A DNA stretch of 64,000 nt from an uncultured Pelagibacteraceae bacterium (GCA_902629285.1 CACOQN010000007.1:8180-72179), one strand, 5' to 3'; shown: positions 2,536 to 53,409, counted from the first letter of the stretch. A program made the numbers and translations. The notes: a model not told the origin generated them from the letters alone.

Positions 2536-3525
2536 ATGAATATGCATAATATACATAAAACAGCTCTAATTGGTACAGGATATTGGGGTTCTATAATTGC
2601 TAAAACTTTAACGAAAATTACTAAAAAAAAAATTATAGTGTTTGACAAAAATAAACAAAATTCAAATTTATTAAAAAAAAAATTTAAACAAATAGTAGCT
2701 GCTAAAAATATTAATGAAATATTACTAAACAAAAGTATAGAAAATATAATATTGGCAACACATCCTAGTATTAATTTTAAACTTGGAAAAGAAGTACTAA
2801 AAAAAAAGAAAAACCTATTTGTTGAAAAACCTATAGTAACGAATCAAAATAAATTATTAAAATTAATTAAATTGTCTGAAAAAAATAATAAAATTTTTAT
2901 GGGAGGATATATATATTTATATAATTCTTTTATTCGGAAAATAAAAACAATACTAAATAAAAAACAACTTGGGCAAATAAAATTTATTGAAATTCAAAGA
3001 AAAAATTTAGGTCCAATAAGAAACGAAATAGACTCTCATCTTGATTTAGGATCACATGATATAAGTATATTAAAATATTTTTTCAAAAAAAAAGTAGTTG
3101 TTAAAAATATTGTTAAACGAAACATATTAAAAAAAAATATATCTGATATTAGTTCTATTAATTTAAAAATAGGTCAAATAAATTGCGAAATTATTTCTAG
3201 CTGGCTAAATCCAACAAAAGAAAGAAAAATTCTGATCATCGGTTCAAAAAAAATGTTAGTTTTTGATGAAATGGAAAAAACTAACAAACTTAAAATTTTT
3301 AATAAATATGCATTTTACCCACCATTAACTAAATTTAAAAAAGATTATACATCAAATAGTGCCAGAATATATTTAGGAAAAACGAAAAAAATCAAAGTTA
3401 AAGAAAATGATACTTTAAGAAATGAATTAATTCATTTTGAAAAAAAGTGTTTTAAGAATCAGGAACCATTAACTAATGGTAGATTTTGTTTAGATGTACT
3501 TAAAACTATTAATTACAAAAGTTAA
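2536..3525 (+). CDS. Gfo/Idh/MocA NAD-dependent oxidoreductase, WbpB/WlbA-like sugar C3-dehydrogenase
   Basis: GTGYWG Rossmann motif, VEKP, DLGSHD. Confidence 0.85.
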   Translation: MNMHNIHKTALIGTGYWGSIIAKTLTKITKKKIIVFDKNKQNSNLLKKKFKQIVAAKNINEILLNKSIENIILATHPSINFKLGKEVLKKKKNLFVEKPIVTNQNKLLKLIKLSEKNNKIFMGGYIYLYNSFIRKIKTILNKKQLGQIKFIEIQRKNLGPIRNEIDSHLDLGSHDISILKYFFKKKVVVKNIVKRNILKKNISDISSINLKIGQINCEIISSWLNPTKERKILIIGSKKMLVFDEMEKTNKLKIFNKYAFYPPLTKFKKDYTSNSARIYLGKTKKIKVKENDTLRNELIHFEKKCFKNQEPLTNGRFCLDVLKTINYKS

Positions 3526-3611
3526 TTAATATTATTATAGAGTCAATTAAAATAATAAATAAAAGGAACTGTATCAAATTTTTTTAACAATATTTATGAT
3601 TATTTAAATTT

Positions 3612-4697
3612 CTAAAATGAATTTAAAACTTTAACAACTTTTTTTACTTCCGATTTTTTTAAAACCGGGTCAATTGGCAGACTTAAACATCTAGATGCAA
3701 TATACTCAGAATTAACAAATTTTTTATTTTTAAATAATTTACTAAAGCATTTAAGCTTATTAATTGGATTAGGATAATGTATTCCATATTGTATTTGATT
3801 TTTTTCCAAATGTTTTATTAAACTTTTTCTATTTTTTACTAAAACAACATATTGATGATAAACAGCATTTTTACTGTATTTAATGATATTTATTTTATTA
3901 TTTTTAATATTTTTTTTATAAAAATTTGCAATATTTTTTCTTTTTAAATTAAATTTCTTTAATGATTTTAATTTTAGATTTAACAAAGATGCTTGAATAC
4001 TGTCTAATCTACTATTGACACCTATTTCATCATGAATATTTTTTCTTTTTTGACCAAGATTTCTTAACTTTATTATTTTTTGGTAAAATTTGTTTTTGTT
4101 TGTAGTAATCATTCCTCCATCCCCATAACAACCAAGATTTTTTCCTGGATAAAAACTGTAGCAGGATAAGTCGCTATGTTTGCCAATATTATTTCCAAAA
4201 TTATCTTTACCCCCGTGTGCCTGAGCTGAATCCTCAATAATAAAAATTTTTTTATTTTTGATAATATTTTTAATCTCTTTAATATTAACAACTCCACCAT
4301 ATAAATTAACTGGCAAAATAACTTTTGTTTTTGAACTTAAATTTTTTTTAATTTCACTTAATGAAATCAAACAATCATCTTTATTAACATCAACCAAAAT
4401 AGGCTTTAAATTATTATTCACAATGGCTAATACTGTGGAAACCCAAGTCATAGCAGGAACTATTACTTCGGAATTTTTTGGTAAATTAAGAACCTTAAGG
4501 GCCAAATACAATGCATCGGTTCCATTGGCACATCCAACAGCAAATTTCGACTTTGTAAAATTTGAAAAATTAATTTCAAAATTCTTAACACTTTGACCTA
4601 AAATAAAATCACTTTTTTTGAAATGTTTTCGAAGCAATCCAATAAAAGTATTATGTAAATGTTTATCCTGTTTGTTAATGTCATAAAATTTAATCAT
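3612..4697 (-). CDS. DegT/DnrJ/EryC1/StrS PLP aminotransferase (WbpE/FdtB-like)
   Basis: EDSAQAHG, SFYPGKNLGCYGDGG (PLP Lys), GVNSRLD; ATG at 4697 preferred to TTG at 4703. Confidence 0.92.
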   Translation of the reverse strand: MIKFYDINKQDKHLHNTFIGLLRKHFKKSDFILGQSVKNFEINFSNFTKSKFAVGCANGTDALYLALKVLNLPKNSEVIVPAMTWVSTVLAIVNNNLKPILVDVNKDDCLISLSEIKKNLSSKTKVILPVNLYGGVVNIKEIKNIIKNKKIFIIEDSAQAHGGKDNFGNNIGKHSDLSCYSFYPGKNLGCYGDGGMITTNKNKFYQKIIKLRNLGQKRKNIHDEIGVNSRLDSIQASLLNLKLKSLKKFNLKRKNIANFYKKNIKNNKINIIKYSKNAVYHQYVVLVKNRKSLIKHLEKNQIQYGIHYPNPINKLKCFSKLFKNKKFVNSEYIASRCLSLPIDPVLKKSEVKKVVKVLNSF

Positions 4698-5448
4698 AAA
4701 CAATTTTTATATTATTTTTCACATACCTTATATCAGATATTTTTTTATTATTAAGAAAAGGTAATTGCATTGGAGGAAAAATAAATGCTTTAATCTGATT
4801 AAAATGTTTATCAGTAATTTTTTTTAATCTAAAATATTTCATTTTTTGATAATTCACCGATGATCTAGAAAAATAAGATCCTTTTTTTAATTTTTGTTTT
4901 TTAATTTTATATTTTTTATTTAAAATATTCTTAAAATTTTTTTTAAGTAGTTTAAGTGAATAAAACATTAAATTGTGGTAATTTTTAAAAGCATTAGTAT
5001 TTCTCCCAATTTTAAATTTTGTTGACGCGATTATGGGTCCTGTATCAATACCTTTATCTATTTTATGTAAAGTAATACCTGAAATTTTCTCTCCATAAAA
5101 AATTTGTAAAAAGTTGGTATGACATCCTCGATATTTGGGTAGTAAACTAAAATGAAAATTGAATAACTCTTTAGATAAAAATTTTTTTATATCTATTATT
5201 AAATCATATTCAATTGAAATGAATATTAAATTTTTTATCTTATAAAGTTCATTTATACTAACTATTCTATATCTATGTTTTTTTGCATATTTCCTTAATG
5301 AAGGCTGCCATGTGTCGGCCCCTTTATCTCTTTTACTTGGTAAGACTAAAATATTTTTTTTACTTACTTTTGATGAAATAAATTTTAGAAAGTCTATCGA
5401 ACATTTGTTCATCCCTGCTACGCATATAATATTATTTTGACCAAACAT
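4690..5448 (-). CDS. Sugar N-formyltransferase (10-formyl-THF dependent)
   Basis: NFHFSLLPKYRG and IDTGPII give the N/H/D catalytic triad; ATG at 5448 overlaps the GT stop (track start 5472 is an alternative). Confidence 0.85.
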   Translation of the reverse strand: MFGQNNIICVAGMNKCSIDFLKFISSKVSKKNILVLPSKRDKGADTWQPSLRKYAKKHRYRIVSINELYKIKNLIFISIEYDLIIDIKKFLSKELFNFHFSLLPKYRGCHTNFLQIFYGEKISGITLHKIDKGIDTGPIIASTKFKIGRNTNAFKNYHNLMFYSLKLLKKNFKNILNKKYKIKKQKLKKGSYFSRSSVNYQKMKYFRLKKITDKHFNQIKAFIFPPMQLPFLNNKKISDIRYVKNNIKIVYD

Positions 5449-7525
5449 ATTTAAAATTTTTTTTTGTGTCAAAAATTTTGTTTATTATAAAATCAGCAAT
5501 AATATTATTTTGAAAATAATTAAAATAACTTTTTTTACTTCTTATAGATCTTATTCTTAACTCTTTAGGTTTGTTGATTATTCTAATTAATTTATCAATC
5601 AAGTCTTCATGTCTCTCATAAATTATAATTTCATCATTATCAAAAAAATCCTGATATTTAACTTTTGAATGAATTAAAGTTAATACACCGTTACCCATTA
5701 ATGACGCTATCCTATTACTAGAAGCGTATTTATTGGGACCTCCCCTACTTAGATTGAGTGCCGTTTTAGATGTCATTAGCTCATTTGAATAAGCATAATT
5801 CCATTTAGGTTCTTCATTATATAATCCTAAAATATTAAAATTAATTTGATTATTTGACTGTAATATTAATTTATCAATAAAATTATATCTTTCATCAATT
5901 GTATTTTTTTTCAATTTTCCATAATTTACACCATGACTCAGTGCAAAAAATAAATCTTTATCCTTTTTTACATTATAAAATTTTCCATTTTCAATATTTG
6001 GATCAACTGGAATTGGTAAAAAATTGATTTTATTTTTCTTAATTTTAGTTTTAATTATATCTGGTGCTGTTGTGATAAAATAATGATCAATCAAATCATT
6101 ATTTTTTTCTATTAAATCTAGATTTTTTCTATAACTAGGATCTCCTTTCATTACATGATCTTCATACCATAAAGCAATTTTAACTCTAAATTTTTCTTTT
6201 AAAATTAACATTGTACTTCTTGATAAAGAATTGTTGTGACCAAATAATATTAAATCAGGTCTATAATTTTTTGTTATTGAAATAATTTTTTTATCTAAAG
6301 AATTATTTAAAAATAAACCTTCATTATGGTTTCTATAATCAAAATCAATTACGTCATGACCGTTACGAATAAAGCCATTTGAAATTTTTTTAGCTATAGA
6401 TAGGTTAAATAAACGATGATTATTTTTAATTCCAAAATTAGAAATATGCAAAATTTTAAAAGTTTTGTTAACCGCTGAAATTAATATTTTTTTTCTTATT
6501 CTTAATTTATCTAATGCATTAACACTTTCGTACGGCTTATGAATAACATTATTAAAATTTTTTTTTTGAATTTTGTTAAGTAAACTCTTATTTTCTATTA
6601 AATTTGAAATAGCATTAATTAATTCTTTCTTATTGTTGTTTTTCAATACATAGTTGTTTTCAAATGTTTCAGATAATCCTCCACTTTTTGATGTGATAAC
6701 AGCACATCCCCTAGAAGCACTTTCTAAAGCAGTACGACCAAAAGGTTCATCCCATGTAGGATTTACTACTGATATTGAAGATTTTTCATAAACTTTGAGT
6801 AAATCTTTATGGCTTATCCAATTATTTATTTTTAATCTTGAATGTGAAAAATTAAAACTTTCTCTTTGCTCATTTCCATAAACCAAAGCTTCCCATTTAG
6901 TATATTTTTTTAAAATTTTAATTATTGCACTTCCAAAAATTCCAAAACCTTTGCTTTTGTTTAATTTACCTGAAAAAACAATAATATTTTTTTTTTTAGG
7001 AAATTTATTAATTGTATTTATGAAGTTATAAATTACTTGAACATTGTTTTTATGACTAAAACTTAAATTTAAGAAAAATCTTTTTTTAACCCAATTACTT
7101 ACAAATATAATTTTATTGCAATTTTCTAATAAAAACTTTTTATAATCTGGTTTGTTACTATATCTTATTGTATTAGGGTCATTATGAAAAATTAAATTAA
7201 TTTTAAGATGAGGATTGTTTTTAATTAAATAATATGCGTATTCAGGTCGATTATGAATTTCAACGATTGAAATATTTCTTTTTTTAATTTCATAATCAAT
7301 ATTTTTAATATACTGCAAGTTTGTATAAAATTTACTTTTTACACTTATTGGTATAACGTTTTTATTAAGATATTTATAATAATTAGGAAGTTTTTTGCAA
7401 AAAATAAAATCTATATTTTTTTTAGTGTTTTTTAAATAGTAATCCACCCATATTGAAACTGCTCCAAAATCTTTATCAGAAAAACTTTCTTTTAGAGGAA
7501 GAATAATCGCTGATTTATTACTCAT
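5432..7525 (-). CDS. Two-module glycosyltransferase: N-terminal GT4 plus C-terminal CgeB-like GT-B
   Basis: EPFGRTALE GT4 motif; second module with ALNLSR...SNRIASLMGNG; 697 aa. Confidence 0.85.
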   Translation of the reverse strand: MSNKSAIILPLKESFSDKDFGAVSIWVDYYLKNTKKNIDFIFCKKLPNYYKYLNKNVIPISVKSKFYTNLQYIKNIDYEIKKRNISIVEIHNRPEYAYYLIKNNPHLKINLIFHNDPNTIRYSNKPDYKKFLLENCNKIIFVSNWVKKRFFLNLSFSHKNNVQVIYNFINTINKFPKKKNIIVFSGKLNKSKGFGIFGSAIIKILKKYTKWEALVYGNEQRESFNFSHSRLKINNWISHKDLLKVYEKSSISVVNPTWDEPFGRTALESASRGCAVITSKSGGLSETFENNYVLKNNNKKELINAISNLIENKSLLNKIQKKNFNNVIHKPYESVNALDKLRIRKKILISAVNKTFKILHISNFGIKNNHRLFNLSIAKKISNGFIRNGHDVIDFDYRNHNEGLFLNNSLDKKIISITKNYRPDLILFGHNNSLSRSTMLILKEKFRVKIALWYEDHVMKGDPSYRKNLDLIEKNNDLIDHYFITTAPDIIKTKIKKNKINFLPIPVDPNIENGKFYNVKKDKDLFFALSHGVNYGKLKKNTIDERYNFIDKLILQSNNQINFNILGLYNEEPKWNYAYSNELMTSKTALNLSRGGPNKYASSNRIASLMGNGVLTLIHSKVKYQDFFDNDEIIIYERHEDLIDKLIRIINKPKELRIRSIRSKKSYFNYFQNNIIADFIINKIFDTKKNFKYVWSK

Positions 7526-7527
7526 AG

Positions 7528-7797
7528 TTATTTATCTTGTTTGTATCTTAAAAATTTTAATTTAATCTTATTTCTTAATTTATAATTTTTTTTTAATTTG
7601 TATTCCTCTTTCATTGCTACCTGTTTATTTAGGTATTTTTTCTTAAATATTAATTCCCAATTAGATCCTCTTGTAAATTTAGCTCCTTTACCCGAATTAT
7701 GTAAGGATAATCTTTTTTTAATATTATTTGTATAACCTACATATGAAATTACTTTATCATTTTTTATTGTAGCTATTAAGTAAACGAAATATTGCAT
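7528..7797 (-). CDS. GIY-YIG nuclease family protein (UPF0213/YhbQ-like)
   Basis: YFVY...YVGYT...R...HNSGKGAKFTR...E. Confidence 0.9.
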   Translation of the reverse strand: MQYFVYLIATIKNDKVISYVGYTNNIKKRLSLHNSGKGAKFTRGSNWELIFKKKYLNKQVAMKEEYKLKKNYKLRNKIKLKFLRYKQDK

Positions 7798-7799
7798 TT

Positions 7800-7874
7800 T
7801 GGCGGTCCCTAGGGGAATCGAACCCCTCTTTCGAGGATGAAAACCACGTGTCCTAACCGATAGACGAAGGGACC
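7800..7874 (-). tRNA. tRNA-Glu (anticodon TTC)
   Basis: Reverse complement GGTCCCT...TTTTCAT...GGTTCGATTCC...GGGACCGCCA. Confidence 0.95.
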
Positions 7875-7921
7875 GAATTGCTGTTTTTTATTGTAAAATC
7901 AATAATTAATCAAGCATATCA

Positions 7922-8863
7922 TTATATGTTTTTTTTTAGTTTTATTACTTTTTTTAATCCTGACGATTTATGTGTCACTAATGTCTCTGAAATGAATTCA
8001 TTATCTTGAATTTCTATACCTTTAACCAAGTCTCCAGAAGTAATCCCAGTTGCACAAAAAATTGAGTCACCTGCAACTATCTCATTTAATTCATATTTTT
8101 TTTTTAAATCATTTATACCCATTTTTTTTGCTCTTATTTTATCTTTCTCAGTTTCAAATAGAAATCTTCCTTGAAAATTACAATTATATGCATCTAAAGC
8201 AGATGCAGCAAGAACACCTTCTGGTCCTCCACCAATACCTAAAAAAATGTCAACATTATATTTATCATCAGTTACTAGTAAAGCACCAGATACATCACCA
8301 TCTGTAATTAGTTTTAAATTAACTTTTAATCTTTTTAGTTCATCTATAACTTCTTTATGTCTTGGTCTATCAAGAATACATGCGGTTAAATTTTCTGGAT
8401 TCTTATTAAGATAATCACTTAAGTTAGAAATATTTTGTTCAACTGTATAATCTAAATCAATGACATTTTTTTCAGTTACTTTAGATGATATTTTTTCCAT
8501 ATAGGTTTCTGGTGCATTAAACAAACTATTCTTTTCTGCTACAGCTATTACAGATAAAGCTCCAGGTAGATTGTTTGCAGCAAAATTAGTACCTTCTAAT
8601 GGATCTACAGCTATATCAAATTCAGGACCATTATTTGTACCAAGTTTTTCTCCAATATATAACATTGGTGCCTCGTCTAACTCACCTTCACCTATTACTA
8701 TCTTACCTTTCATCTCTAAACAGTTTAATTCGAACCTCATAGAATCTACAGCTGCTTTATCAGCTGCTATTTTATCTTTTTTTCCAACTAAGTAAGATGA
8801 TGCTAAGGCTGCTTTAGAAGTTATGGAAGCAAATTTATTTATAAAATTTTTATTAATAGTCAT
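7922..8863 (-). CDS. glpX: Fructose-1,6-bisphosphatase class II
   Basis: VIGEGELDEAPML, DPLEGT, DGDV, GGPEGV. Confidence 0.96.
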   Translation of the reverse strand: MTINKNFINKFASITSKAALASSYLVGKKDKIAADKAAVDSMRFELNCLEMKGKIVIGEGELDEAPMLYIGEKLGTNNGPEFDIAVDPLEGTNFAANNLPGALSVIAVAEKNSLFNAPETYMEKISSKVTEKNVIDLDYTVEQNISNLSDYLNKNPENLTACILDRPRHKEVIDELKRLKVNLKLITDGDVSGALLVTDDKYNVDIFLGIGGGPEGVLAASALDAYNCNFQGRFLFETEKDKIRAKKMGINDLKKKYELNEIVAGDSIFCATGITSGDLVKGIEIQDNEFISETLVTHKSSGLKKVIKLKKNI

Positions 8864-9855
8864 TAAGCTTTTTCATCTATTAAATCCTCTTCTTTAATTT
8901 TAGACTCAAATTCTCTCAATCTTTTATATACACTAGCAAGCTCAATTATAGTTGGCCATGCTTTAAGTATGTATTGCATTGATCCCTCTACTCTTCCAAA
9001 TGCTCTAATAATTTGCTGCATTACACCAAGTGTTACTGCACCTGCAACTATAGCAGGAGCTAAAAAGACATATGCTGATAGTACATTTGCCTGCAAATAA
9101 GCTATTCTTCCTATATTAAAATATAAATATCTAATATAGCTTAAGAAATGAATACTTCTTACTCCATCAAATAACTCTTCAATAGTTTTTGGTCTTATAG
9201 TTCCATCATCTTCAGCAATTACAAGTATTTTTCTATAAGCCGCCTCTTTCTTTTGGAGATCATATTCAACTCCAACTAATCTCAAAATTAAACCAAGTAA
9301 AATTAAAAAAATTGTTCCTCCTACTGACCAAATTAATGCTCCAACAATTAATCCATAGTCCCAGTCACCAAAAAAGAAAATTGGTATACCTATGCTTAGC
9401 CCAAAAAGAATTGGCATAAATTCTACAAGTATCATTACAGCTTCGATTAAGCTTGTACCAAGAGACTCCATAATTCTAGAAAATTTGATAGTATCCTCTT
9501 GTACACGTTGAGCTGCTCCCTCTATTTTACGAGCTTTATCATATACACTGTGGTACCATTCAACCATAGCTGTTCTCCATCTAAATAAATAATGAGAGGT
9601 AAAGAAACTTACTATTACAGCGACACCAACATACATCGCTGCTAAGATAATAAATGATAATAAACTAGCCCAATATTCTTCGATAGTGATTGAATTTGGC
9701 GCCCCTAAGGCTTTTTGTATCATATCATAAAATTCACCAAACCATTCATTAATTTTAACATCTATCTTAACCTGGATCCAAAGAGACGATAAAATAATAG
9801 CCGAACCTATCCATGACCAAAGAAACCAATTTTGTTGTGTGAAAAATCTAAACAT
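8863..9855 (-). CDS. sbmA: SbmA/BacA peptide transporter
   Basis: FRWRTAM, IEGAAQRVQEDT, YDLQKKEAAYRK. Confidence 0.92.
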   Translation of the reverse strand: MFRFFTQQNWFLWSWIGSAIILSSLWIQVKIDVKINEWFGEFYDMIQKALGAPNSITIEEYWASLLSFIILAAMYVGVAVIVSFFTSHYLFRWRTAMVEWYHSVYDKARKIEGAAQRVQEDTIKFSRIMESLGTSLIEAVMILVEFMPILFGLSIGIPIFFFGDWDYGLIVGALIWSVGGTIFLILLGLILRLVGVEYDLQKKEAAYRKILVIAEDDGTIRPKTIEELFDGVRSIHFLSYIRYLYFNIGRIAYLQANVLSAYVFLAPAIVAGAVTLGVMQQIIRAFGRVEGSMQYILKAWPTIIELASVYKRLREFESKIKEEDLIDEKA

Positions 9856-17144: not shown

Positions 17145-18285
17145 CCCAAATTAAATAATTAATTGATTTTATCAACCTTGTAAAAAAATTAACTTTTTTA
17201 ATTTCTTTGGATGAATGTAAATCATATTCTCCAACCAATTCCTGATCATACACAACTCTAAGTGTTGCAATTTTTTGGTCTTTTTTAATTGGTGCTTCAA
17301 TTGGACCATCATACTTAACAATAACCTTTAAGAGTCTTTTTTTTGCTTTTTTTATTGTTTTATAAATATCTTCATTTGTATATGCATCAACACTATTTTC
17401 TTTTCCTAACCATACATCTATTTTATGAAGAGATTTTTTTGCTTTTGCTATCTCTACAAGATCATAATTAGTGAGACCATATGTCAGTAATTTTGTGCTT
17501 TCACGAGATCTAGAATTTTTTGTAGTAAAACCGCTTCCAACTGCAATCAATCTTCTTCCATTTCTGCTAATTGAAGAGGCTAATGAATATTTTTCAACAG
17601 CAAGATAACCAGTTTTTATTCCATCAGCTCCAAGATTTTTATACAGTAAAGGATTTCTATTTCCTTGAGTAATTGGATCGCCGCCTGTTCTGCTCCAAGT
17701 AAATTCTTTTTCAGCAAACATTTTATAAAACTCAGGATGTTCCTTAATTAAATATCTGGACATTTTTAAAATATCACTGACAGTTGAATAATTATCAGGA
17801 TCATTAATACCTGAAGAATTTGAAAAATTTGTATCATCCATACCTAATTCTCTTGCTTTTCCTGTCATTAAAATTGCAAATTCTTCCTCAGTGCCTGCTA
17901 TACCTTCGGCCAAAGCAACACAAGCATCGTTTCCTGAAGCAACAATAATGCCTCTTAATAAATTTTCAACTGACACCTCATCACCTACCATTATAAACAT
18001 TGATGAATAACCAGAAGTAGATAATCTCCATGCCTTTTCAGAGATTATGAATTTCTCGTCTAATTTTAAATCACCAGACTTTATTAAATCAAAGGCAATA
18101 ATTGCAGTCATAATTTTTGTCATTGATGCAGGATAAATAGAAGTATCGGAATCTTTTTCGTAGAGAATTTCTCCAGAATAATAATCCTGCAATATCGCAG
18201 TTCTGGCTTTAACATCAAAGTTAGCTTTTGATATATTTACGAATGAAAAACTTAAAAAAATTATAACTAATAGTATTTTAAACAT
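17134..18285 (-). CDS. dacA: D-Ala-D-Ala carboxypeptidase (PBP5/6)
   Basis: SMTK (SxxK), SGN (SxN), KTG. Confidence 0.95.
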   Translation of the reverse strand: MFKILLVIIFLSFSFVNISKANFDVKARTAILQDYYSGEILYEKDSDTSIYPASMTKIMTAIIAFDLIKSGDLKLDEKFIISEKAWRLSTSGYSSMFIMVGDEVSVENLLRGIIVASGNDACVALAEGIAGTEEEFAILMTGKARELGMDDTNFSNSSGINDPDNYSTVSDILKMSRYLIKEHPEFYKMFAEKEFTWSRTGGDPITQGNRNPLLYKNLGADGIKTGYLAVEKYSLASSISRNGRRLIAVGSGFTTKNSRSRESTKLLTYGLTNYDLVEIAKAKKSLHKIDVWLGKENSVDAYTNEDIYKTIKKAKKRLLKVIVKYDGPIEAPIKKDQKIATLRVVYDQELVGEYDLHSSKEIKKVNFFTRLIKSINYLIWGDV

Positions 18286-19039
18286 CTTTTAATATTTCTA
18301 TATTTTCAAAATTTAGTACTTTAATTTCATCAAACGATTTTTCCAGTTTTTTTATATCATTAAATGGACCTAATAATACCCTATATTTAGTTTTCGAAAG
18401 TTTCCTTATTACTGAACTTTTTATATTTGTTTCATTCTTGATTCTATCGATCATATTTTCAGCTGAATCTCTGTAATAAAAATCTGCGATCTTAATTGAA
18501 TATAAGAATTTATGTTTTTCTATTTTTGTTTTCTTTTTTTTTTCTGTTCCCAAATTATCTATAGTGATTCCATCCACTGGAGCTTTTTCAGCTACTTTTT
18601 TCTCTTCATCAAATGTTTTAGCTTTTTTAGCAACAAATGTTGAGTTCTTGGATATCAAAACAAGATCAATGTATGGTTCATTTGGCTCAAGAGAAATTTC
18701 TTCAGCTATTCTTCTCGTAATTACAGAGTTGTAAAAATCAGAGAATTCAACATTATTAGAAATCACTTCTGCTATAATTGATTTATTGTTGAGAGGATTC
18801 GTTATTTTTACAAATGAATTTTTTTTTATTTTTTTATGAAATATTAAAAGAGATCTGTTATCAATTTTTTTTGATATTTTTTTCGTTTTTTTTAATTTAT
18901 CTTCATAAATGAGAGCAAAACCAGTATTGCTATATTTTTGATCACTAATATAAACTAATGATTTATTATTTTTATCAAATTGATTACAAGCAGATAAGAA
19001 AAGTATATAAAATATTAAAATAATTTTTTTAAAGTTCAT
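18278..19039 (-). CDS. RlpA-like lipoprotein with C-terminal SPOR domain, degenerate catalytic domain
   Basis: LSAC lipobox; VKITNP..N.SI; YRVLLGPF; mltB-rlpA-dacA order. Confidence 0.75.
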   Translation of the reverse strand: MNFKKIILIFYILFLSACNQFDKNNKSLVYISDQKYSNTGFALIYEDKLKKTKKISKKIDNRSLLIFHKKIKKNSFVKITNPLNNKSIIAEVISNNVEFSDFYNSVITRRIAEEISLEPNEPYIDLVLISKNSTFVAKKAKTFDEEKKVAEKAPVDGITIDNLGTEKKKKTKIEKHKFLYSIKIADFYYRDSAENMIDRIKNETNIKSSVIRKLSKTKYRVLLGPFNDIKKLEKSFDEIKVLNFENIEILKDV

Positions 19040-20030
19040 TTTTAAATTTATCTTTTAATGTACAAACAGCTAAAGCAAATCGTAACGATCTGTTCCATTT
19101 TAATATAATCTCGTAGTTATCAAATACAATATATGCTGGGTTTAATGTTTCAGCATCAGGAATTATATCTTTATCTGGGGTTATAATTGCTACATTAAAC
19201 TTATCATATTTAACATTAATCCGATCATTATTTTTTATATATTTTCTAAAATATCTTAATTTTTTTTTATCGTGTAACTTTTTTGCAGAAATATTTAAAT
19301 ATTTTTTTGGAATATCTTTTGATAAATTGATTCTATAAAAACAAGGATTATCGCTTTTCCAACCAATTTGATTTAAATAATTTGATGCTGATGCGTAAGC
19401 GTCATTATTATTTTTTAGATCTATATATCCATTTTTATCATGATCAATTGCATAATTCTGCATTGTAGATGGCATAAATTGAAAATAACCAAAAGCACCA
19501 GCCCAAGATCCGTATAATGTTTTATGGTCTATTTGTTTGTCTTCAATCAGCTTTAAAAGAATTAATAATTCTTTAGTAAAAAATTCTGATCTTCTTTTAT
19601 CAAAGCTTAATGTTGCTAATGATGATAATATATCCATTTTTCCAACATACGTACCAAAATTAGTCTCAATACCCATTAGTGCTAATAATAACTCTTTTTC
19701 TATATCGAATTTGTTTTCAACAGAATCAATTAATTTTGAATTTTCGTTATAAAAAATTTTCCCTATTGAAACTTTTTTTGATGATGTTCTTTTTGAAATG
19801 TAAGTGTTAGTATCTTCATAAAATTCAGGTTGAAATCTATCATATTTAATTACATCTGATAAAAATTTGGTATCTGACATAACTATATCAAAAGTTTTTT
19901 CTGATATATTATTTTTTAAAGCTAATTTTTTGAAATCTATTTTCCAATTTTGAAAATCTTTATTAATATCAGCAAACGAACAATTGATAGATATTAAAAA
20001 AAAAAATAGAAAAACATTAATTTGTTTCAT
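19029..20030 (-). CDS. mltB: Lytic murein transglycosylase, MltB family
   Basis: GIETNFG, GSWAGAFGYFQFMPST, YASASNYL. Confidence 0.92.
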   Translation of the reverse strand: MKQINVFLFFFLISINCSFADINKDFQNWKIDFKKLALKNNISEKTFDIVMSDTKFLSDVIKYDRFQPEFYEDTNTYISKRTSSKKVSIGKIFYNENSKLIDSVENKFDIEKELLLALMGIETNFGTYVGKMDILSSLATLSFDKRRSEFFTKELLILLKLIEDKQIDHKTLYGSWAGAFGYFQFMPSTMQNYAIDHDKNGYIDLKNNNDAYASASNYLNQIGWKSDNPCFYRINLSKDIPKKYLNISAKKLHDKKKLRYFRKYIKNNDRINVKYDKFNVAIITPDKDIIPDAETLNPAYIVFDNYEIILKWNRSLRFALAVCTLKDKFKNEL

Positions 20031-49794: not shown

Positions 49795-50808
49795 ATGAAA
49801 AATATTAAAAAAATACCTCTTATATTCTCAATATTATCAATTTTAACATTCTTTACACCAGCAAATGCTGAAATAAAAGTAGTTGCTTCTATTAAACCAA
49901 TTCATTCATTAGCCAGTTATTTAATGGACGGTATTGCTAAACCTGATCTAATAGTTGATGGATATGCATCTCCACACGGATTTGCTATGAAACCGTCACA
50001 CGCAAAAATGCTTCAAAATGCTGACCTAATATTCTGGGTTGGTGAAGATTTGGAAAATTTTTTAGAAAAACCATTGAGTTCAATAGCTAAGAAAGCAGAA
50101 AAAATTGAATTAATGGAAACTAAAGGATTACAGGTATTAAAATTTAGAGAAAGAAATATTTTTGACGAACATGATCATGACGATCATGGACATGATGATC
50201 ACGGTAAAAAAGAGGATGATCATGACCACGATCATGATGACCACGGTAAAAAAGAAGATGATCATGACGACCACGGACATGACGATCATGATGGACATGC
50301 ACATGGTGAATTTGATCCACACATTTGGTTAGACCCAATTAATGCAAAAGTTATGTTAAATGAAATGACGTTGCATTTAATTGAAAATGATCCAAAAAAT
50401 GAAGCTAAATACAAAAGTAATTTAGCTAAAGCTTTACAAGAAATCGACAAACTTACAATTGATGTAATGACAGATTTAAGCAGCAGCGTTTCTTCAATTG
50501 TATTCCATGATGCTTATCAATATTTTGAGGAAAGATTTAATGTTAAAGTGTTAGGTGCATTTACTGTTAATACTGACGTAATGCCTGGTGCTGAACAGCT
50601 AGCTGAAATAAGAGAAATTATTGAGCATGATAAAGTTTCTTGTGTGTTCTCTGAGCCTCAATTTAATCCTGATATTATCAAAGCAGTAGCAAAAGATATG
50701 AAGATTAAAACTGGTGTTTTAGATCCCCTAGGTGCAACATTAGACCCAGGTAAAGATCTATATTTCAATTTAATTAGAAATATGTCTGCATCTTTCAAAG
50801 GCTGCTAA
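49795..50808 (+). CDS. znuA: Zinc ABC transporter substrate-binding protein
   Basis: SPH, His/Asp-rich loop, DPHIWLDP, FHDAY. Confidence 0.95.
   Translation: MKNIKKIPLIFSILSILTFFTPANAEIKVVASIKPIHSLASYLMDGIAKPDLIVDGYASPHGFAMKPSHAKMLQNADLIFWVGEDLENFLEKPLSSIAKKAEKIELMETKGLQVLKFRERNIFDEHDHDDHGHDDHGKKEDDHDHDHDDHGKKEDDHDDHGHDDHDGHAHGEFDPHIWLDPINAKVMLNEMTLHLIENDPKNEAKYKSNLAKALQEIDKLTIDVMTDLSSSVSSIVFHDAYQYFEERFNVKVLGAFTVNTDVMPGAEQLAEIREIIEHDKVSCVFSEPQFNPDIIKAVAKDMKIKTGVLDPLGATLDPGKDLYFNLIRNMSASFKGC
50191..50268 (+). repeat. Near-identical 36-nt direct repeat, period 42, inside znuA His loop
   Basis: catgatga(t/c)cacggtaaaaaaga(g/a)gatgatcatgac at 50191 and 50233. Confidence 0.9.
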
Positions 50809-50847
50809 TTTAAAGGAATAAAAATTAAATTTTAGTTTCCTCTATAA

Positions 50848-50865
50848 TTGTAATAAATTCGTAAC
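50848..50865 (+). promoter_or_regulatory. Pho-box-like 11-bp-period direct repeat
   Basis: TTGTAATAAAT-TCGTAAC matches 14/18 positions of CTGTCATA(A/T)A(T/A)CTGT(C/A)A(C/T). Confidence 0.45.
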
Positions 50866-50888
50866 AAAAATTACAAATAGAGGAGACT

Positions 50889-51110
50889 ATGTTTATTAAA
50901 AAATATCTAAAATGGATTAGTACAGCTCTTGTTTTAACAGGTATATTGTTAACTAATTTAAATATCTACCCTGTCAATATTTACTTTCATGGATTAGGAG
51001 TTGTGGGTTGGACTATTGCAGGATTTATATCAAAAGATAAGGCTATATTAACTAACTTTGGATTACAAATACCATTGTTTGTAATTGGAATTTATAAAAT
51101 TATTTTCTAA
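50889..51110 (+). CDS. Small three-TM protein (DUF6552/PnuC-half-like)
   Basis: KW.ST.L.L.G, LNIYP.N, GW...G...KD; strong SD AGGAG. Confidence 0.75.
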   Translation: MFIKKYLKWISTALVLTGILLTNLNIYPVNIYFHGLGVVGWTIAGFISKDKAILTNFGLQIPLFVIGIYKIIF

Positions 51111-51544
51111 TGAAAAATATCTTATTCGTTTGTACAGGTAACTCAGCTAGAAGCATAATAGCTGAAAGTATTATAAACAACAAATATTCAAATAAATTTA
51201 AAGCTTATAGTGCTGGAAGCAATCCAACAAGAAAAATTAATGAAAATATCAAATTATATCTTACTAAAATAAAAAATTTTAATCTTGAAAACTGTTCTTC
51301 AAAAAATTTTGATATATTTTTAAATAAGAAATTTAATATAGATCATGTAATAACAGTGTGTAATAACGCAAATAAAGAAATTTGCCCTGTATGGCCAAAT
51401 AATAACCAAATTATTCATTGGGATGTTGAAGATCCTGTATCAAAATTTAAAAATTCAAATGAAAAACAGATAAACAAAATTATTAGTGAGACTTACGATA
51501 TAATAAGTAAAAAAATAGAAATTTTGTTAGAAAATGAAAATTAA
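51110..51544 (+). CDS. arsC: Thioredoxin-type arsenate reductase (LMW-PTP fold)
   Basis: CTGNSARS P-loop; TVC...CP redox Cys pair; HWDVEDP. Confidence 0.88.
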   Translation: MKNILFVCTGNSARSIIAESIINNKYSNKFKAYSAGSNPTRKINENIKLYLTKIKNFNLENCSSKNFDIFLNKKFNIDHVITVCNNANKEICPVWPNNNQIIHWDVEDPVSKFKNSNEKQINKIISETYDIISKKIEILLENEN

Positions 51545-52184
51545 AAAAAACATAGTTATTGGCGAATTTTTAGGAAGTTGCTTTCTTGTAATGATCATCG
51601 TTGGTTCTGGTATAATGGCAGAAAATCTAACAAATGATGATGGTATTAAACTTTTAGCCAATACAATTGCTACTGGAGCTGGATTATTTGTTTTAATTAC
51701 AGCCTTTGCTGATATTTCAGGAGCTCATTTTAATCCTTTTGTAAGTTTAGCGATGTTTTTTAGAAAAAAAATCAAAAGTGATCTTTTAAAATATTATATT
51801 CCTGCACAAATATCTGGTTGTTTATTTGGAGTAATGTTAGCTAATATTTTTTTTGAACACGCTATTTTAGAGTTATCAACTAAAAATAGAGATGGATTGC
51901 ATATATTTTTTTCAGAAATTATTGCTACCTTTGGTCTGATATTTGTTATTTTTGCAACTTTAAAGGATGGAAAAACAATAGTAGCGATTAGCGTAGCAAC
52001 ATATATTTCTGCAGGTTATTGGTTTACTTCTTCAACATCTTTTGCAAATCCAGCTGTATCTATAGCTAGAACATTTACTGATTCTTTTACTGGAATAAAT
52101 TATCTTAATACACCAACATATATTTTAGCTGAATTTATTGGATTAATTTTAGCAGCGTATATTCTTAAAATTATCTATAAATAA
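51534..52184 (+). CDS. MIP/aquaporin channel, AqpS-like arsenite channel
   Basis: SGAHFNPF, YWFTSSTSFANPA; overlaps arsC stop. Confidence 0.9.
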   Translation: MKIKKNIVIGEFLGSCFLVMIIVGSGIMAENLTNDDGIKLLANTIATGAGLFVLITAFADISGAHFNPFVSLAMFFRKKIKSDLLKYYIPAQISGCLFGVMLANIFFEHAILELSTKNRDGLHIFFSEIIATFGLIFVIFATLKDGKTIVAISVATYISAGYWFTSSTSFANPAVSIARTFTDSFTGINYLNTPTYILAEFIGLILAAYILKIIYK

Positions 52185-52443
52185 CACAACTTATATATGT
52201 AAATTATATTTAAATTTTATTTACATAATTTACAAATATTATATTAAGGGCGAATCCACATAAGGTTTCTCAAAATAAAATAATTCACTTATAGACTTCT
52301 CTTTAGCTTAGACTAAAGATGGATGAATCTTTTCTTTGATTCTCAAATAAATAAATTTAATCGTAGAATTTTTTACCTTTAACGAATATTTACTTTCTCA
52401 AGTCATGAGACGGAACCGAAAACAATAATATATAGGAGAAAAA

Positions 52444-53409
52444 ATGGATATGACTTTAGTATACACAGGTATAGGGTTTGCCCTAGCTGGATATAGCGTA
52501 ATCGCTAATGACTCAATTCAAACACTTGGTACCTTTATAGCCTCAAAAAAGAAGTGGTTTAAATGGTACATACTAGCTGGATCAGCATCTGCTGTTATGA
52601 TTTTTGCGTTAGCTTGGGGATGGTATGCGTATGATGGTGATATTTCTTATGGAAGATTAACTAGAATACCTTATCAAGAGATTCAATGGTATCATGCAGT
52701 AGCACCTGCGATACTGTTATTATTAACAAGAATTGGAATACCGGTATCAACAACCTTTTTAGTTCTTTCAGCATTTGCTTCAACAGTTGTGTTAGAAAAA
52801 ATGTTGTTAAAAAGCGTTGTAGGTTATGGATTAGCAGCAATGGTTGCTTATATAGCCTGGATAGCAGTATCAAAGTTCATTAATGAAAAATTTGATGAAG
52901 TAGACGATAAATGGAGAGGATTTTGGAGAAACTCTGTTTGGATTTCATCAGGTTGGTTATGGTGGGTTTGGTTATCTCACGATGTAGCTAACATTGCAGT
53001 ATATCTGCCTAGGCAATTAGATTTATCATTACTTTTAATTGTAATGGCTTATTTTACTTCTTTGTTATTTTACATTTTCTACATTCAAGGTGGACCAATT
53101 CAAAAAGTTGTTCTTGAAAAAACAGGAACAAGATATGCAAGATCAGCTACAATTATTAATGTGATTTATGCTGGTGTTTTATTCTACTTTAAAGAGCTTA
53201 ATGATTTGCCAATGTCAACAACATGGGTGTTCGTTGGGTTATTGTGTGGTAGAGAACTTGCAATATCAACTATGAATAAAGACTATAAATTTAAGTATGT
53301 CTTCCCATTAATTGGTAAAGACTTTCTTAAAATGATTTTTGGATTAAGTGTTTCAGTAGGTATCGTTTTAGCGATCCACTACATAATAATTCCAAATAAT
53401 TGGTTTTAA
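52444..53409 (+). CDS. Divergent PiT/PHO4-fold inorganic anion transporter-like protein
   Basis: Two repeats: ANDSIQ...GIPVSTTF and SHDVAN...LPMSTTW; SD AGGAG. Confidence 0.65.
   Translation: MDMTLVYTGIGFALAGYSVIANDSIQTLGTFIASKKKWFKWYILAGSASAVMIFALAWGWYAYDGDISYGRLTRIPYQEIQWYHAVAPAILLLLTRIGIPVSTTFLVLSAFASTVVLEKMLLKSVVGYGLAAMVAYIAWIAVSKFINEKFDEVDDKWRGFWRNSVWISSGWLWWVWLSHDVANIAVYLPRQLDLSLLLIVMAYFTSLLFYIFYIQGGPIQKVVLEKTGTRYARSATIINVIYAGVLFYFKELNDLPMSTTWVFVGLLCGRELAISTMNKDYKFKYVFPLIGKDFLKMIFGLSVSVGIVLAIHYIIIPNNWF

Follow-up and report, generated by a model that had tools for sequence, protein, structure and literature searches.

A variable phosphate/arsenate locus of Pelagibacteraceae with a DUF6552-arsC-aqpS gene set and an adjacent gene for a divergent PiT-like carrier

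In SAR11 subclade Ia.3, Giovannoni et al. (2019, mBio, PMC6426599) described an arsenate reductase of the LMWPc_ArsC type and the aquaporin encoded adjacent to and downstream of it, and found no other arsenic genes in the clade. HTCC7211 is arsenate-tolerant, its growth being uninhibited at As/P ratios above 65:1; arsC is induced 2.3-fold by phosphate starvation, and its frequency is inversely related to ocean phosphate (PMC6426599). The locus presented here lies in a stretch of 64,000 nucleotides, called the window, from an uncultured Pelagibacteraceae bacterium (GCA_902629285.1 CACOQN010000007.1:8180-72179). Between positions 50,889 and 53,409 of the window are found a gene for a DUF6552 protein, arsC, a gene for a channel of the MIP family and a gene for a protein related to the phosphate transporters of the PiT/SLC20 superfamily (PiT-like). 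Clade, both gene families, the order arsC then aquaporin on one strand and the lack of other ars genes are the same as in the published pair. A DUF6552 gene ahead of arsC and a neighbouring phosphate transporter are not mentioned in PMC6426599. In the window arsC is accompanied by the gene for a PiT-like carrier and Pst is missing from the genome, whereas sampled arsC genes usually occur together with Pst.

In the AqpS pathway of Sinorhizobium meliloti, encoded by arsR-aqpS-arsC-arsH, a MIP takes the place of the ArsB/ACR3 pump in releasing As(III) formed inside the cell (PMC6138428). The MIP of the window shares its loop-E motif with the MIPs of such operons, to which it is 45-51% identical. 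The window differs from the S. meliloti operon in lacking ArsR and ArsH, in a reductase of the LMWP/thioredoxin (Trx) instead of the glutaredoxin (Grx) type, in the order arsC then MIP, in a first channel box that reads NPF and in the DUF6552 gene that leads the set. It differs from the canonical ArsR-regulated ars operon in that the genome contains neither an ArsR/SmtB repressor nor an ArsB/ACR3 pump.

The pst operon is missing from HTCC1002 and HTCC9565 (Grote et al. 2012). Offshore SAR11 genomes without Pst/Pho appear to depend on pitA alone, according to Tucker et al. (2025, PMC12636525); neither pitA nor arsC is listed in the supplements of that paper. In the SAR11 Genome Atlas preprint (10.64898/2026.08.15.744057) OG0001433 is presented as a group with no COG, KO or Pfam assignment that anti-occurs with seven Pst/Pho genes; by a Foldseek match to 6L85 at 16.8% identity it is called a candidate TmPiT-like transporter. 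By these descriptions, 'pitA'/OG0001433 and the PiT-like protein of the window belong to the same protein family, and three of the points (no Pfam, the 6L85 fold match and the anti-occurrence with Pst) were reproduced here independently. The available parts of the two papers do not report that the gene takes the same slot as the pst operon beside DUF6552-arsC-MIP, that it adjoins pst where both occur, that it has homologues in other phyla, including a phoBR-PiT-like-acr3 operon, or that its phosphate-ligand residues are conserved. Both halves of the locus, the arsC-aquaporin pair (PMC6426599) and the PiT-like gene (PMC12636525; 10.64898/2026.08.15.744057), are already published, and the novelty given to them in a preliminary description of the window does not stand. 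New here are the common locus with alternative importer cassettes and the recurrent Pst-less four-gene genotype; the conserved putative phosphate ligands together with His or Gln at the Na2 site; and the wider distribution of the PiT-like family, the phoBR-PiT-like-acr3 operon and the linkage of DUF6552 to arsenic and phosphate genes.

The four genes probably represent two adjacent functional units in a flexible SAR11 phosphate/arsenate locus, namely a DUF6552-arsC-aqpS operon and a PiT-like gene. Each of the four proteins and PstA was searched against 151 Pelagibacteraceae genomes. A MIP gene is present in 60 of the 61 genomes with arsC, which makes the two near-obligate partners. The PiT-like gene is accessory (44/151 genomes) and coincides with arsC in 4 of its 44 genomes, where independence of the two would give about 18 (44 x 61 / 151), while Pst is present in 47 of the 61 arsC genomes. 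The 21 near-complete genomes of the genus divide into 8 with the PiT-like gene only, 12 with Pst only, one with both and none with neither (Fisher p = 4e-5, calculated, like the other Fisher tests, on raw counts that ignore phylogeny, with many of the sampled genomes incomplete).

Gene order was compared in 20 genomes and 80 public loci. One locus, between the znu/zur genes and GMP-PMI-ilvD-valS, has a variable content. It may hold DUF6552 alone beside phoB-phoU-pstBACS, or DUF6552-arsC-MIP followed directly by phoB-phoU-pstBACS with no PiT-like gene. Other variants are DUF6552-MIP-PiT-like (found in HTCC9565, locus L048), DUF6552-PiT-like and the PiT-like gene alone, each of them as common as the full four-gene order, which occurs in the window and in 9 more species-level SAR11 genomes (loci L022-L028, L031 and L043). 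As the order DUF6552-arsC-MIP recurs in several genera and the four-gene order in these 9 further genomes, the gene order is not due to chance. No pstA was detected in any of 17 genomes with PiT-like loci, the nine four-gene ones included, and wherever the PiT-like gene and Pst both occur they are adjacent. Pst and the PiT-like gene are alternative importer cassettes at one locus; arsC-MIP, MIP alone, the PiT-like gene and Pst are cassettes shuffled between lineages, and the Pst-less genotype with all four genes recurs in at least ten species-level genomes.

The genome of the window (1.31 Mb in 36 contigs, 94.5% complete), to which single-cell and isolate genomes of Pelagibacteraceae (SAR11) are the closest public ones, was searched for further importers and ars genes. 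SAR11 PstS, PstC, PstA and PhoU gave no match with tblastn, and a PhoB orthologue was not found, the best match being 33% identical. None of the 21 genomes of the genus has canonical PitA/PHO4, which in the family occurs in only 10 of 151 genomes. The preliminary description had noted the lack of ArsR, Acr3 and ArsB in the window, and this extends to the whole genome: neither ArsB (PF02040) nor ArsR-type HTH_5 (PF01022) was matched, control genomes being matched (14 of 14 for PF01022), tblastn with two ArsR proteins was negative, and no ACR3, Grx-type ArsC, ArsH, ArsK or ArsI-like gene was detected with tblastn, nor were PhoU_div or a PhnE-like permease. At 94.5% completeness, the absence of hidden Pst or ars genes is probable, not certain. 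The PiT-like gene is the only recognisable inorganic-phosphate importer found in this genome.

The layout of the genes is given in Table 1. All four open reading frames were confirmed at the stated positions, on the plus strand and co-oriented as in the preliminary description. The DUF6552 and arsC genes overlap by 1 nt (TAATG) and arsC and the MIP gene by 11 nt, which makes translational coupling among the first three plausible; the boundaries of the operon are presumed ones. The PiT-like gene starts 259 nt past the end of the MIP gene. Its leader, the roughly 180 nt from 52262 to 52443, is conserved whatever precedes it, be it MIP, DUF6552, a zur-like gene or znuA, and the PiT-like gene is therefore read as a transcription unit of its own with a putative promoter/operator. 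The leader contains a near-invariant TAGAAT, a -10-like hexamer at about 52364-52369, and repeated GAATC words. No terminator-like site was found in the intergenic region. A riboswitch or other structured leader was considered for the region and rejected in favour of a conserved promoter/operator, as Rfam gave no match at E <= 1 and no consensus structure (0 pairs) was predicted by RNAalifold from 18 homologous leaders.

Table 1. Genes and putative regulatory regions of the locus, in window coordinates
Feature	Position	Strand	Product length	Remarks
DUF6552 gene	50889-51110	+	73 aa	First gene of the putative operon
arsC	51110-51544	+	144 aa	LMWP-fold ArsC, thioredoxin-coupled type by cysteine pattern
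MIP gene	51534-52184	+	216 aa	Predicted AqpS-clade channel, PF00230
PiT-like gene	52444-53409	+	321 aa	Compact, divergent member of the PiT/SLC20 superfamily; corresponds to SAR11 'pitA'/OG0001433
Region upstream of DUF6552	50839-50888	+		Candidate promoter/operator of the three-gene operon
Intergenic region, MIP to PiT-like gene	52185-52443	+		3' part of about 180 nt is the conserved putative promoter/leader of the PiT-like gene

The region upstream of DUF6552 contains a Pho-box-like direct repeat, TTGTAATAAATTCGTAAC, with an 11-bp period, although the genome has no PhoB orthologue. Around it is a longer inverted repeat (CCTCTATAATTGTAAT ... ATTACAAATAGAGG), which extends as far as the Shine-Dalgarno sequence. 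The motif TTGTAATAAAT(T/C)nGTAAC upstream of DUF6552 is conserved in SAR11 genomes with pst/phoB and in those without. In loci L049 and L050 (Pelagibacter sp. Uisw_116 and Uisw_136, which have Pst/PhoB and the PiT-like gene) the usual leader of the PiT-like gene is replaced by a different sequence with the same type of Pho-box-like repeat, TTGTAATTAATAATTAAC, about 30-50 nt upstream of position 7001. The PiT-like gene may be Pho-regulated where PhoB exists.

The DUF6552 protein (PF20189, 40.5 bits against a cut-off of 27, E 3.5e-10) is a small membrane protein with three predicted transmembrane helices. It belongs to a divergent subfamily that is 33-48% identical to canonical members. The AlphaFold2 model is a confident helical bundle (pLDDT 88.9). 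Comparison of the model with PDB folds gave no significant match, only generic three-helix bundles and SemiSWEETs at E 1.6-5, and therefore no function was assigned. The gene is nearly core, being matched in 53 of 58 high-quality Pelagibacteraceae genomes (E <= 0.001), although some of the weakest matches carry internal stops and are spurious.

The neighbours of DUF6552 outside SAR11 were also inspected. In one genome of another alphaproteobacterial family (G358), DUF6552 is translationally coupled to an arsC of the LMWP type, and the pair is divergent from PhoU_div (DUF47) and a canonical PHO4 PitA. In G436 it is convergent with ArsH (TIGR02690, 383 bits against a cut-off of 292), and three genomes of a single family carry it at a distance of about 2 kb from pstSCAB-phoU-phoB. 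A fourth family, f121, has two DUF6552 loci with unrelated neighbours. Arsenic or phosphate neighbours were thus found at 5 of 7 loci in 3 of 4 families, and a functional tie of DUF6552 to arsenic or phosphate handling is suggested by this recurrence. That DUF6552 is a true third component, for example a membrane partner of ArsC/AqpS or a small oligomeric channel, and not a bystander at an insertion hot spot, is a tentative possibility. Besides these neighbourhoods, it would account for the TAATG coupling to arsC and for the conservation of the subfamily across alphaproteobacterial families, which at 60-69% identity exceeds that of ArsC (33-34%); set against it are the near-core distribution, with DUF6552 kept in genomes that have no arsC and MIP, its position far from arsC-MIP in genera g12, g14 and g17, the two f121 loci, and a fold search in which even the SemiSWEET entries reached only E 3-5.

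The arsC product has the LMWPc fold (PF01451, 57.2 bits against a cut-off of 23.2). Its best NCBIfam model is TIGR02691 (arsC_pI258_fam) at 65.4 bits, under the equivalog cut-off of 174.3, so that the protein is a divergent member of the TIGR02691-type ArsC and its name rests on residues and context. Sequence matches in PDB are the ArsC structures 1lju, 1jl3 and 1jf8. The phosphate-binding loop with its nucleophilic cysteine, C8-TGNSA-R14-S, aligns to C10-X5-R16 of pI258 ArsC. The second and third redox cysteines of that enzyme, C82 and C89, correspond to C84 and C92, between which the loop is longer by one residue (C-X7-C), and D105-P is present and aligned to the catalytic Asp. By C8-X5-R14, C84/C92 and D105 the protein is a putative arsenate reductase of the LMWP/thioredoxin type, in agreement with the preliminary description. 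A TrxB homologue (46% identity) is encoded in the same genome.

The third protein (PF00230, 97.8 bits) has its two boxes at residues 67-69 and 172-174. As the preliminary description had noticed, the first reads NPF; the second is NPA within the loop-E motif NPAVSIAR. Its nearest relatives in a plasmid collection, which set the range of identities given above, lie within ars operons: arsR-MIP-arsC-arsH-arsK in Agrobacterium, arsC-arsC-MIP in Ralstonia and, in Arthrobacter, a plasmid locus in which the MIP gene stands between two ArsR genes, near arsC and trxB. All of them and the window MIP have in common the invariant loop-E motif YWFTxSTSFANPA(V/A)xx(A/G)R. The Arg that usually follows NPA directly stands four residues later in the MIPs of this clade, as the fifth residue behind the box. 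Box 1 is variable in its third position within the clade, with NPA, NPV and, in SAR11, NPF. On account of the identity values and the common loop-E motif the channel is placed in the AqpS clade, as had been proposed, and NPF appears as a lineage trait of SAR11 at a variable position. The presumed role of the channel is that of a passive exit route for As(OH)3.

The ArsC of the window is 95% identical to that of L022 and 86% to that of L023, and only about 65% to ArsC of pst+ genomes with DUF6552-arsC-MIP. Its MIP is 77-79% identical to the MIPs of arsC-less genomes with DUF6552-MIP-PiT-like, compared with about 70% for DUF6552-arsC-MIP genomes. These two patterns suggest that at least two arsC lineages entered the same slot.

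Three further observations were made on the content of the locus. In L013 (genome G126), positions 3157-3790 hold, in this order, DUF6552, an arsC of which only the first 57 codons are left, and a partial second copy of DUF6552; after about 14 kb of other genes an intact arsC-MIP pair follows at 18075-19143. This arrangement looks like a recombination scar at a cassette insertion point. At G083:C1:265671-266740 both arsC and MIP are pseudogenes, interrupted by several in-frame stops. They directly adjoin a pst operon and an intact PiT-like gene, and suggest decay of the detoxification pair in this one lineage. A gene for a PhyH-family dioxygenase lies between znuA and DUF6552 in L009 (5685-6566) and L023 (about 4478) and is another variable cassette.

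The fourth protein reached no Pfam or NCBIfam family at threshold, and neither it nor its family profile matched any PDB chain sequence; only fold comparison worked. A homologue search with the protein returned near-identical SAR11 proteins only, while an exhaustive search of representatives gave 813 clusters (50% identity) at E <= 0.001. Of 36 diverse family members 19 touched PF01384 at E <= 1, with a best E of 5.2e-7. With hhalign the family aligned to canonical PitA at E 2e-4 and a probability of 46%, pairing NDSIQTLGT with GANDAANVFGT and GIPVSTT with GLPVSTT. The AlphaFold2 model (pLDDT 80.7, pTM 0.80) had a single convincing Foldseek match in PDB, 6l85_A (TmPiT; E 3.7e-4, prob 1.00, TMq 0.65), the next match having prob 0.25 and TM 0.17. 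The PiT fold that the preliminary description had named was confirmed in the model, which has 5+5 inverted repeats and two re-entrant hairpins.

TmPiT consists of two inverted repeats with the family motifs G-Phi-N-D-Phi, P-Phi-S-x-T and I-x-x-x-W-Phi, and binds phosphate by D22, D258 and two S/T/T triplets (PMC7413737). Its G-Phi-N-D-Phi signatures are N21/D22 and N257/D258, in which the Asp binds both phosphate and Na, and I-x-x-x-W-Phi is found in TM3 and TM8. The window protein has the same architecture as TmPiT/SLC20 (6L85), each repeat having an (N/H)D signature helix and a P-x-S-T-T hairpin tip, at about 16% identity and with ANDS and SHDV in place of G-Phi-N-D-Phi. By motif correspondence all eight ligand counterparts are kept (D23, D180, S102-T103-T104 and S258-T259-T260), and these positions are invariant in alignment A3 of 26 homologues from several phyla. 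The hairpin tips, P100-V-S-T-T and P256-M-S-T-T, show no variation in A3 and hardly any in alignment A1. In the signature of repeat 1, A-N22-D23-S, N and D are kept and Ala replaces the signature Gly. W139 is invariant in the first half of the protein; a counterpart of the second IxxxW is not evident. In the model a 9-residue linker (146-154) joins the repeats where TmPiT has the scaffold helices TM4 and TM5. The PiT-like gene also differs from those of TmPiT and bacterial PitA in having no DUF47/PhoU_div partner gene, and from both proteins (PF01384) in a product that stays under the Pfam threshold. The protein is predicted to have the PiT fold and a putative PiT-like action, yet remains below the curated family threshold.

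In four loci of marine Flavobacteriales/Crocinitomicaceae (L082, L083, L085 and L088, about 5180-9120) genes for a PhoB-like regulator, a PhoR/PnpS-like kinase, a PiT-like transporter and ACR3 follow on the same strand. The ACR3 scores 401 bits against TIGR00832 (cut-off 283), and the transporter shares about 61% identity with its SAR11 counterpart. A gene for an arsenate reductase was not seen close to these clusters. Micavibrio, Bdellovibrio-like and other PiT-like loci outside SAR11 have mostly unrelated housekeeping neighbours, e.g. argG and argH, so that, beyond SAR11, only the four flavobacterial loci show a clear arsenic/phosphate context of the gene. The putative phoB-phoR-PiT-like-acr3 operon would independently show the same logic of importer plus detoxification.

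Weighed as two adjacent units for phosphate import and arsenate detoxification, the locus has several points against it, beginning with the limits of the counts described above. Nine of the 151 genomes have MIP and no arsC, and arsenite exit after ArsC can therefore not be the sole role of the channel. It is unlikely that the main job of the MIP is the passage of another small neutral solute, such as methylated arsenicals, boric or silicic acid, glycerol or urea, and not arsenite exit: 7 of the nine genomes, in which MIP is intact, have the PiT-like gene, box 1 is NPF in SAR11, and transport of the methylated arsenicals MMA and DMA by aquaporins was raised in PMC6426599, but MIP lies directly downstream of arsC in 60 of 61 arsC genomes and its nearest plasmid relatives stand in ars operons and share its loop-E motif.

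Other points against the reading as two units concern the importer. The top sub-threshold Pfam match of the PiT-like protein is PF01384 (PHO4) at 11.2 bits (E 0.18, cut-off 33.7). In the signature of repeat 2, S-H179-D180-V, the Asp is kept and His stands for the Asn of the TmPiT Na2 site; relatives have His or Gln at this position. Finally, in genus g12 (G109:C17:161563-168405 and G067:C26:596-7738) about 5 kb separates the divergent PiT-like gene from a canonical PF01384 PitA, the pair adjoining PhnE-like and alkaline-phosphatase-family genes, so that the two carriers may be non-redundant and differ in substrate or coupling. These features, with the missing second IxxxW, would fit a protein that carries a non-phosphate oxyanion or acts as a sensor/transceptor and whose gene owes its position to island mosaicism only. 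This is quite improbable, since all eight phosphate-ligand positions are kept, the 8 near-complete genomes in which the PiT-like gene occurs without Pst and without canonical PitA must import phosphorus, and the gene adjoins pst-phoU-phoB in SAR11 and phoB/phoR-like genes in Flavobacteriales. SAR11 reportedly lacks assimilatory sulfate reduction (Tripp et al. 2008), which makes a sulfate carrier unlikely.

The preliminary description had taken the four genes for a minimal, ATP-free unit. That they form one co-selected, co-regulated and co-inherited module has little probability, although the nine further four-gene genomes, all like the window genome without pstA, the same pairing in the flavobacterial operon and the DUF6552-arsC pair divergent from PhoU_div-PitA would agree with it: arsC is present in only 4 of 44 PiT-like genomes, arsC-MIP goes with Pst in 47 of 61, the three shorter variants are each as common as the four-gene order, and the PiT-like gene has its own conserved upstream region. 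What stands of the proposal is the genotype itself, which is real and, without Pst, present in at least 9 other SAR11 genomes that also have no pstA; the four genes are not one unit. The independent assortment that the preliminary description had set against its own proposal is largely what was found across SAR11 for the set as a whole, but not for arsC and MIP, which are nearly inseparable (60/61).

Under the reading as two adjacent units, the PiT-like secondary carrier would import phosphate and, unavoidably, arsenate; being the only recognisable phosphate importer in a Pst-less genome, it is the likely arsenate entry route. ArsC would then reduce cytoplasmic arsenate to arsenite, presumably being recycled by thioredoxin, and the AqpS-type MIP would let As(OH)3 out down its gradient. 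No pump, ATP or ArsR sensor would be involved. In other SAR11 genomes pstSCAB-phoU-phoB occupies the same slot instead of, or beside, the PiT-like gene.

The 5' flank of the locus consists of the minus-strand genes zur, znuB and znuC and of znuA, which is on the plus strand; the 3' flank holds the GMP/PMI gene, ilvD and valS on the minus strand. The G+C content of the window is about 28-30%. The ZnuA protein contains a long His/Asp-rich repeat loop (window 50130-50340, within znuA; DHDDHGHDDHGKKEDDHDHDHDDHGKKEDDHDDHGHDDHDGHAHGE), the length of which seems variable among genomes. Rfam gave a single match in the region, mir-598 (E 0.027), a spurious one within this low-complexity repeat.

The comparison supports the view that, whatever phosphate importer a cell has, arsenate detoxification is located next to it. 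No new kind of system is revealed; the value lies in the cassette locus, the recurrent Pst-less genotype and two candidate proteins, DUF6552 and the divergent PiT-like carrier, which have consistent arsenic/phosphate neighbours in unrelated taxa. DUF6552 could be a small membrane component in marine Alphaproteobacteria, found near arsC (window and G358), near ArsH (G436) and elsewhere near pst. The PiT-like family could be a class of about 800 clusters (50% identity) in several phyla, with all phosphate ligands and His or Gln at the Na2 site, and its habitual companions could be arsenite exits, AqpS in SAR11 and ACR3 in Flavobacteriales. That both hold jointly, with the DUF6552 subfamily an unrecognised arsenic/phosphate component and the PiT-like family a distinct class of phosphate/arsenate carriers, is rather doubtful; in the case in which it is true, the two together would define a detoxification scheme that works without ArsR and is integrated at the importer. 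In the surface ocean SAR11 is the most abundant heterotroph, and the way in which its lineages take up phosphate and cope with arsenate shapes phosphorus and arsenic cycling.

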